From a virus (taxonomy: Duplodnaviria > Heunggongvirae > Uroviricota > Caudoviricetes), in the IMG/VR virus record IMGVR_UViG_2534682295_000017: a stretch of DNA of 8,139 bases. One strand, written 5' to 3'. Positions 3,681 to 4,692 of this stretch are shown piece by piece. The translations under genes were made by a program, and so were the position numbers. Every line of letters starts with the position of its first letter. The first letter of the stretch is position 1. The notes below the pieces were generated by a model. That model was given only the letters and a program-made list of their open reading frames with translations, was not told the origin of the DNA and did not search any database.

Positions 3681-4692
3681 AAAGGTGAAAACCGGCAGTT
3701 CATCCAGTAAGTCAGTATTGACCTGGCTTGCTGATATGTGCGGTGCCGATTTGTGTGCATACCCGTCTGTATCTGCACTGGCAGAAGTAACGGAACTGAA
3801 CAAAAAGACTGTGCAGGACAGCTTACGACACCTGATGGAGATTGGGTTAATTGTTGATACCGGTGAGAGAAAAGGCAGAACAAAGCAAATTGTGGTGTAC
3901 CGACTTATCGGTGTAGAAGAAAGTGTTGCCGAGCCTGAATACACCCAAAAACGGGAGTCTTTAAAGGTGGGTAAAATTGGTGCTGTTAATAAAAACAGTA
4001 CCGAAAATGGTTATGTTTCAGCACAAAACAGACCCAAAAACAGAACTCTTAGCTGCATGGAAAATAACCAAAGACACCCAAATTTTCCATCAAAGACACC
4101 CAAAAACGGATCACGGAACCCAAAGGAACCCAAAGATCTAAACCCCACACATAACGCACGCGAGAGTGCTCCGACCAGTGAGCAGGAAGTTTTGTCGTTA
4201 CAGGCAGCCCCCCCTGTATTCCTGTATGGCCTGAGCGAACCCATCGGAAAATTCCCGATGAGCGATAGCTGGTATCCGTCACGGGATTTTCGACGACGGG
4301 CTGCGTTGTGGGGGATGGCTTTGCCGGAGACAGAATTTACACCTGCTGAACTTGCCGCCTTCCGGGACTACTGGGCAGCGGAGGGGAAAGTGTTTACGCA
4401 GATTCAGTGGGAGCAGAAATTCGCCCGTCACGTAAATCACGTCAGGGCGCAGGTTAAACCAGTCAGCAAAGGGGTAAACCATGCAGCAGCACCAGGTGGC
4501 ACCGCATCACGGGCAGTTCAGGAAATTCGGGCAGCACGTGAGCAGTGGGAACGTGAAAACGGATTTATCAGCGACGGAAACGGCCTGGAAGCTGTGGGAA
4601 CTCATGGGGGTGGTTTATTCGAACCGCTGGATCCAGAAGAACGGGGCCGCACCTTCGAAGCTCTGGATTGCACAGATTGGCGCGATGACTGA
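3652..4692 (+). CDS. replication initiator, O-like (N-terminal HTH plus C-terminal DnaT-like domain)
   Basis: First in-frame ATG is at 3652, preceded by a GGGGGG run; the track ORF start at 3577 is a TTG. N-terminal HTH-like region (SVSALAEVTELNKKTVQDSLRHLMEIGLIV), a low-complexity linker encoded by the iterons, and a C-terminal DSWYPS...FTPAELAAFRDYWAAEGKVFTQIQWEQKFARHV segment resembling the DnaT/primosomal domain of phage replisome organisers. Confidence 0.65.
   Translation: MSIDALRWAKKVKTGSSSSKSVLTWLADMCGADLCAYPSVSALAEVTELNKKTVQDSLRHLMEIGLIVDTGERKGRTKQIVVYRLIGVEESVAEPEYTQKRESLKVGKIGAVNKNSTENGYVSAQNRPKNRTLSCMENNQRHPNFPSKTPKNGSRNPKEPKDLNPTHNARESAPTSEQEVLSLQAAPPVFLYGLSEPIGKFPMSDSWYPSRDFRRRAALWGMALPETEFTPAELAAFRDYWAAEGKVFTQIQWEQKFARHVNHVRAQVKPVSKGVNHAAAPGGTASRAVQEIRAAREQWERENGFISDGNGLEAVGTHGGGLFEPLDPEERGRTFEALDCTDWRDD
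4027..4140. repeat. iteron cluster (candidate prophage origin of replication) inside the O-like gene
   Basis: ACCCAAA core at 4032, 4076, 4098, 4118 and 4128, spaced 44, 22, 20 and 10 bp apart. AAGACACCCAAA occurs twice (4071-4082, 4093-4104), and GGAACCCAAAG is tandem (4115-4125, 4125-4135). An AT-rich stretch lies just upstream (about 3975-4025). Confidence 0.5.

Follow-up and report, generated by a model that had tools for sequence, protein, structure and literature searches.

A probable lambda-type replication origin inside the initiator gene of PPompW-type EHEC prophages

Positions 3940-4139 of the 8139-bp stretch of DNA analysed here (the window) very probably constitute a lambda-type replication origin of a PPompW-type EHEC prophage, located inside the initiator gene itself. 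Five repeated sites, or iterons, lie at 3940-4114 within the initiator reading frame, between its N- and C-terminal domains, and are followed by a short module of GAAYC repeats. The preliminary description of this DNA had placed iterons in an O-like initiator gene and suggested a likely cis-acting origin that mirrors lambda; the origin proposal now draws support from conservation of the sites, selection at the DNA level and co-inheritance with the initiator N-domain, and the likeness to lambda from remote homology to lambda O in PHROG profiles and from a P-like loader gene directly downstream. In the mechanism that we propose, the initiator’s own winged-helix domain would bind the five 16-20 bp iterons, probably as dimers, and the occupied iterons would assemble, on DNA that is itself curved, into a bent nucleoprotein complex resembling the O-some; the duplex would then open at the adjoining GAAYC module (4115-4139), and the DnaT-like domain of the initiator and the downstream P-like protein would bring in host DnaB.

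The window is 99.6-100% identical to PPompW, the lambdoid prophages at ompW in EHEC (O157:H7, O55:H7 and O111 genomes). Of 5426 complete E. coli genomes, 908 carry its replication module, O157:H7, O55:H7 and O111 genomes among them, and one genome can contain as many as four copies of the initiator allele. Existing annotation of the module goes no further than a ‘DnaT-like’ or ‘replication’ protein and marks no origin. The genes and initiator domains are arranged as follows.

2434-2841, minus strand: dicA-like repressor gene
2918-3145: cro/dicC-like gene
3129-3680: YdaT/CII-like gene
3652-4692, plus strand: initiator gene, 346 aa (open reading frame and translation)
3652-3915, plus strand: winged-helix DNA-binding domain of the initiator, aa 1-88, the presumed iteron reader
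4240-4452, plus strand: DnaT-like domain of the initiator, aa 197-267 (Pfam PF17948, 9e-17; PDB DnaT chains 6aep and 4ou6, E 1e-18 to 1e-19)
4685-5146, plus strand: lambda-P-like helicase loader gene (Pfam Phage_lambda_P, 4e-16; PHROG 109 ‘P-like helicase loader’, 2e-54)
after the loader gene: DUF1627 gene, then Paa/AdfO

The start of the loader gene overlaps the stop codon of the initiator gene (4685 vs. 4692). Farther downstream, the Paa/AdfO adherence-factor gene (SBP_bac_11 domain; 6774-7532) is prophage cargo beyond the replication module, and a hok/sok-type toxin-antitoxin locus lies at 7721-7870 on the plus strand (Rfam sok antitoxin, 103.9 bits), where a 70-aa open reading frame (7811-8023), annotated as gef or ‘phage maintenance protein’ in PPompW, overlaps the sok match.

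The initiator, annotated as ‘phage replication protein’ in PPompW prophages, matches Pfam DnaT (9e-17) and HTH_36 (3e-4), PHROG 1032 ‘replication initiation protein’ (9e-91) and the O-like PHROGs 391, 678 and 345. An AlphaFold2 model covering aa 1-104 (pLDDT 85) is ordered over aa 1-88, with four helices and a β-hairpin wing, and its confidence drops from residue 91 on, in keeping with predicted disorder. Foldseek comparison of this domain with the PDB returned generic winged-helix DNA binders at weak E-values, which supports the predicted fold class and nothing finer. The DnaT-like domain presumably serves as the adaptor that links the initiator to helicase loading. On PHROG 678 and PHROG 345, lambda O scores 2e-35 and 5e-17 and the window protein 9e-11 and 8e-8, so that through these shared profiles the N-domain appears to be a remote homolog of lambda O; between the window initiator and lambda O there is no BLASTP similarity, and the window initiator has no Pfam Phage_rep_O match.

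The heptamer ACCCAAA occurs six times in the window, always on the plus strand (3943, 4032, 4076, 4098, 4118 and 4128), against 1.6 expected from whole-window shuffles, of which 1 in 200 reached six. Five of these copies fall within 4027-4140 (114 bp), just as had been described, where 0.19 copies are expected on average under a local first-order Markov model and five were never reached in 200,000 simulations. The longer repeats differ from those first reported: in place of two 12-mers, the repeat finder returns two identical 14-mers, CAAAGACACCCAAA, at 4069 and 4091, 22 bp apart, and the supposed tandem 11-mer is the 10-mer GGAACCCAAA, present 2.1 times at 4115-4135 (TRF period 10). The six cores occupy all three codon phases (0, 2, 1, 2, 1 and 2, counted from the ATG at 3652) and are read, in order, as T-Q-K, P-K, P-N, P-K, P-K and P-K. 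The domain limits at aa 88 and aa 197 agree with the earlier placement of the repeats in the linker-coding part of an O-like gene, since the repeats fall between winged helix and DnaT-like domain. The unit itself had to be redefined: the ACCCAAA copies are real, but what is repeated is a 16-20 bp, partly dyad-symmetric site and not a 7-mer, and the range 4027-4140 misses an iteron at 3996-4015, leaves another at 3940-3959 outside, and includes a tandem 10-mer that belongs to a distinct second module.

Phasing at about 10-11 bp, also part of the preliminary description, holds within the window, where the five ACCCAAA cores give a resultant length of 0.90 at periods of 10-11 bp (p=0.036) and the five redefined units one of 0.97 (p=0.004). 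Among the relatives described below it extends to the last two intervals, which in most of them are regular at 22 or 24 bp, but not to whole arrays: over all pairwise distances the resultant is only ~0.1 at 10-11 bp, and we reject family-wide helical phasing of entire arrays. The 10-11 bp AAA periodicity is the strongest of the window at a centre of 4045 (power 1.75, with a next best of 0.55 and a median of 0.06), and curvature prediction, put forward earlier as a check, places the single strongest peak of the window at 4087, in a wedge-model profile that is to be read as qualitative. The second-strongest curvature peak (2383) and second-strongest AAA/TTT phasing (2368) coincide with a 23-bp tandem repeat, AAGCTTCTTGTGTAGAAAAACCT x1.9 (2334-2377), just past the 3’ end of the dicA-like repressor gene. 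The AT-rich stretch said to adjoin the repeats does exist (65-70% AT at 3960-4019 and 4080-4099) but is located inside the array. The window contains 0 matches to the DnaA box TTWTNCACA, no internal promoter or terminator was found, and an Rfam search returned no known RNA family in the iteron region.

To define the family, the N-terminal 178 aa were used as query, yielding 83 proteins and, after a genome scan, 80 loci from Enterobacterales, Acinetobacter, Marinobacterium, Burkholderiales, Rhodocyclales and Sphingomonadales (gamma-, beta- and alpha-proteobacteria). In nearly all 80 homologous genes, the most-repeated 9-mer is present in 4-9 copies that lie on one strand and cluster at nt 270-480, which corresponds to window 3940-4140. 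The family iteron consensus, AGTCCCAAAAACGGGAC, extends over ~16-20 bp with dyad arms GTCCC/GGGAC (GTCCC-N6-GGGAC), and an Acinetobacter-type member reads GTCCCAACGTTGGGAC. An iteratively built 20-nt matrix (PWM; consensus cAGTCCCAAAAACGGGACag), with inverted-repeat arms around an A-rich 6-bp centre, finds 14.8 sites/kb on the plus strand of the linker, compared with 0.27/kb in the remainder of the gene and 0.09/kb in flanking DNA; it was trained and scored on the same loci, which is mitigated by a codon test on peptide-selected sites (below) and by an independent check on Vibrio phage H20, outside the training set, whose gene has seven sites in three frames followed by the second module. In the window the matrix marks 3940, 3996, 4029 and 4095 with scores of 17-19. 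An isolated match at 7268 within the Paa/AdfO gene (score 14.2) stands alone. The five units and their readings are listed here.

3940-3959, plus strand: iteron 1, TACACCCAAAAACGGGAGTC (PWM 19.1; read T-Q-K-R-E, core codon phase 0)
3996-4015, plus strand: iteron 2, CAGTACCGAAAATGGTTATG, dyad ACC/GGT (PWM 17.3; read S-T-E-N-G)
4029-4048, plus strand: iteron 3, CAGACCCAAAAACAGAACTC (PWM 19.2; right arm degenerate)
4073-4092, plus strand: iteron 4, GACACCCAAATTTTCCATCA (half-site with AAATTT-type centre, 22 bp before the last iteron)
4095-4114, plus strand: iteron 5, the last, GACACCCAAAAACGGATCAC (PWM 19.2)

Iteron 1 shares 27 identical nt with the Edwardsiella locus L005 despite 57% protein identity; iteron 2, whose unit at 3996 can also be written ACCGAAAATGG, contains AACAGTACCGAAAA, an exact match to Achromobacter, Aromatoleum and Sphingomonas loci. 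Iteron 4 falls below the full-site PWM threshold, and its unit type and exact 22-bp register recur in the penultimate units of Kluyvera, Edwardsiella, Burkholderiales and Acinetobacter loci. Iteron 5 aligns with the relatives’ best-conserved terminal dyad, AGTCCCAAAAACGGGACAC. Array registers are 17 bp for the distal units and 22 or 24 bp for the proximal ones, and a perfect dyad closes the array. The window iterons are more degenerate than those of the relatives: only units 1 and 2 keep both arms, unit 5 has part of its right arm while units 3 and 4 have lost theirs, and no site occupies the -44 slot of the 22-bp register, so that this particular copy could be weak or inactive. Many units retain the left arm only. 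Across the family the two arms covary, with complements at the outermost pair in 82% of cases vs. 50% when shuffled, a value that none of 2000 shuffles reaches, in loci that are phylogenetically related, such that p-values overstate independence. The covariation ends one base further out, which would fit symmetric recognition of a 16-bp site.

Two relatives depart from the common layout. In Arsenophonus nasoniae (L063), a second full array of four sites scoring 17-24 lies outside the gene, ~1 kb upstream of it, and may have been left behind by, or duplicated from, another initiator gene. In a Sphingomonadales MAG (L068, 2501-3880), ~100 extra aa separate the winged helix from the iterons, which are found at nt 565-665, and the initiator ends in a DnaA N-terminal (helicase-binding) domain.

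The array is followed by a second module and by a joint that partly overlaps it.

4115-4139, plus strand: module 2, GGAACCCAAA GGAACCCAAA GATCT, GAAYC repeats 10 bp apart (full string GGAACCCAAAGGAACCCAAAGATCT)
4132-4153, plus strand: junction box, AAAGATCTAAACCCCACACATA, the mosaic joint between the N-domain-plus-origin module and the C-terminal module

After the last iteron, at least one GAAYC pair spaced 10-13 nt is present in 51 of 66 unique loci, and at least two pairs in 41, compared with 0.07% of control windows. Polaromonas carries nearly identical module 2 words, and in Burkholderiales the module consists of 11-bp units read in three frames. By its position, which matches that of lambda’s AT-rich unwinding region, module 2 may serve as an unwinding or loading region. 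The family has an AT excess of +0.09 to +0.19 in the first 40 bp past the last iteron, of which there is hardly any in the window; here those 40 bp are 50-55% AT, and this lack of a clear AT-rich unwinding element counts against the origin reading. The module also contains, at 4119-4125, the zero-frame X XXY YYZ slippery heptamer C CCA AAG, where a -1 shift would stop at the TAA at 4152-4154 and give an N-domain-only protein; Kluyvera and Enterobacter have ACCAAAG and ACCAAGG instead, and with this lack of conservation the heptamer is probably incidental.

Throughout the family the array always accompanies the winged-helix N-domain, whichever C-terminal domain is paired with it (DnaT-like, Phg_2220_C or DnaA_N) and whichever partner lies downstream (P-like, DnaB-type helicase, Toprim-helicase or DUF6475). 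Rac-SA53 YdaU offers the converse arrangement, with the same C-terminus (~91% identity) behind another N-domain (different PHROGs), and a PWM scan of its gene found no iteron sites. The junction box is common to Kluyvera and Enterobacter, which share the left side with the window, and to Rac-SA53 ydaU, which shares the right side and has an unrelated left; the window matches Rac-SA53 ydaU from 4132 onward only. Compared in this way, the sequences indicate that the array is coupled to the N-terminal domain alone, across domain and partner swaps. Many database entries for the initiator protein (clusters P0001-P0016) are ‘partial’, from contigs that end inside the gene, probably as assembly breaks at the mosaic joint common to co-resident prophages. 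Double annotations had also raised the possibility of an initiator split into two genes at the iterons, which we discarded; in Vibrio phage H20 the second feature is an overlapping upstream gene.

Could the sites bind the initiator and yet serve mainly in regulation, by autoregulation, as a roadblock before the P-like gene or in copy-number handcuffing, with initiation elsewhere in the prophage? All of them do lie inside the operon and upstream of the loader gene, their dyads would suit dimeric repressor-like binding, and the window has no strong AT-rich element. Against this, the same in-gene arrangement is the origin in lambda (PMC7466680), a conserved module 2 after the last site together with variable helicase or loader partners fits an origin better than an operator, and the window holds no other repeat cluster of the iteron kind. 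We therefore regard a mainly regulatory role as unlikely, albeit the best placed of the alternatives to a replication origin.

The covariation of the arms would equally fit the stems of single-strand hairpins, signalling primosome assembly or priming where the DNA is unwound, or forming an mRNA structure, in place of duplex binding sites. The C-terminal domain is DnaT-like, and the 216-nt region 3935-4150 folds better than its shuffles (z of -2.9 as ssDNA and -3.35 as RNA). The predicted stems, however, pair between iterons and do not form one hairpin per unit: the right arm of unit 1, GGGAGTCTTT, pairs with the left arms of units 4 and 5, AAAGACACCC, and ATGGAAAAT with ATTTTCCAT, so that the folding is likely a by-product of shared half-sites. 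Furthermore, the many units that keep the left arm alone, the absence of any Rfam match in the region and the strict co-inheritance with a duplex-binding winged helix point to recognition of double-stranded DNA, and we consider hairpins very improbable as the functional form of the sites.

A further rival takes the DNA repeats as a by-product of a PKNG-like repeated peptide in a flexible protein linker, with no cis-acting role for the DNA. The homologs’ linker does carry recurring xP(K/E)NG(T/S)V peptides, and the modelled part is predicted to be disordered over its last residues, 91-104. Nevertheless, 67 of 81 loci read their sites in at least two frames, and 14 in all three, with identical per-frame consensus, and one DNA word thus yields unrelated peptides: PKNG, PKT(G/E) and QKR. 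The repetitive look of the family’s linker peptides (xPKNGT, SQKRN, VPKTE) is that of three reading frames of a single DNA word. When sites are selected by peptide alone (P[KE]NG within aa 80-175), their proline codon is CCC in 68 of 68 cases vs. 94 of 617 (15%) elsewhere in the same genes (Fisher 5e-49), their lysine codon AAA in 51 of 51 vs. 64% elsewhere, and their asparagine codon AAC in 65 of 68 vs. 52% elsewhere. Exact matches of at least 11 nt that the window gene shares with distant homologs (35-45% protein identity) are confined to the iterons. Because the sites are read in two or three frames and their synonymous codons are fixed, the selected unit is the DNA and not the peptide, making the array a clean example of coding sequence shaped by DNA-level constraint. 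With all copies on one strand and arms that covary as complements, the peptide explanation, already contradicted by the frame and codon tests, retains very little plausibility. No better placed is the notion that the conserved words are recombination ‘linker’ sequences promoting module exchange between phages: the mosaic joint at 4132-4153 does follow right after the array, but its box is distinct from the iterons, and the copy number, registers (17, 22 and 24 bp), orientation and dyads conserved across phyla are features that homology does not need.

The replication origin thus remains our preferred reading. Our literature search, in a limited library, found nothing relevant on the iteron word or the origin of this initiator family, and the oriJ papers give no sequence-level origin and deal with a different N-domain; origins of this kind are known, and the widespread family and its signature appear to have gone unremarked. 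The finding provides a concrete candidate origin for a widespread E. coli prophage replication module, and with the family-wide signature origins could be marked in many temperate phages, among them those of Acinetobacter, Vibrio, Edwardsiella and Burkholderiales. It also bears on prophage induction, on cross-activation or incompatibility of co-resident EHEC prophages, and on vector design.

Among the closest known systems are lambda and the Stx phages 933W and P27, where the iterons likewise lie in the linker of the initiator reading frame between N- and C-domain; the architecture of the lambda origin and the function of its O-some are established (PMC7466680). The four lambda iterons, TCCCTCAAAACGAGGGA, are also read in different frames. 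Dyads of the form CCC...AAAAC...GGG around an A-tract are common to both systems, clearly so here at the level of the family; both also have a unit centred on AAATT, and GGGACAC behind the final one, the lambda array ending in GGGGGACAC before AT-rich DNA. A P-type loader is encoded next, both regions are intrinsically bent, the present one by prediction (for lambda, PMC7466680), and the N-domains share PHROG profiles 678, 345 and 391. Lambdoid O genes display the same modular pattern as the present initiator family. Unlike in lambda, TCCC and GGGA start 10 bp apart and not 13 bp, the protein combines HTH_36 with a DnaT-like C-terminus in place of Phage_rep_O, the arrays comprise 4-9 units in 17, 22 or 24 bp registers, and GAAYC repeats stand where lambda has a plain 40-bp AT-rich tract. 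Because arm spacing differs by 3 bp, the family and lambda matrices do not cross-match; neither lambda nor phage L iterons are scored by the family PWM, and we rejected them as instances of the same motif.

A more far-reaching proposal, which we consider less likely than not, is that ori-lambda and the present origin descend from one ancient origin-plus-winged-helix unit and that module 2 represents a new type of element, recognised by sequence in single-stranded form, for unwinding or helicase loading. Iteron word, architecture and the previously undescribed GAAYC module have hardly changed among temperate phages of alpha-, beta- and gamma-proteobacteria, and the initiator proteins have meanwhile diverged to ~35% identity. 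It is this retention, combined with the lambda-like features (CCC..AAAAC..GGG, the AAATT centre and the GGGACAC end), that common descent, if true, would follow from.

Gene 18 of Salmonella phage L, an O-like gene, contains six imprecise TGTCCAACGGA repeats followed by AT-rich DNA, considered by its authors a likely origin (PMC8022706). It and P22 gene 18 follow the same logic, resting on prediction as here, and phage L gp18 matches the same O-like PHROG profiles as the window N-domain; the differences lie in another iteron word, shorter 11-bp units, a PHROG 345 protein and a DnaB-type helicase partner, and phage L gp18 has no BLASTP similarity to the window protein. Iteron plasmids offer a further parallel, as RK2 TrfA, F RepE, pPS10 RepA and R6K pi are winged-helix initiators with repeated sites beside a short-repeat unwinding element, where plasmid Rep makes contact with one of the strands as well (PMC4081077), by analogy a possible model for module 2. 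Their iterons, however, lie outside the rep gene as direct, monomer-bound repeats, usually with DnaA boxes, whereas those of the window are inside the reading frame, with none. Finally, the Rac ydaU-ydaV region (oriJ) shares with the window the gene order dicA, dicC, ydaT, initiator and loader, a C-terminal DnaT-like region ~91% identical and the same P-like partner gene, but has an unrelated N-terminal domain and none of the present iterons, and hence the two prophages must use different origin sequences.
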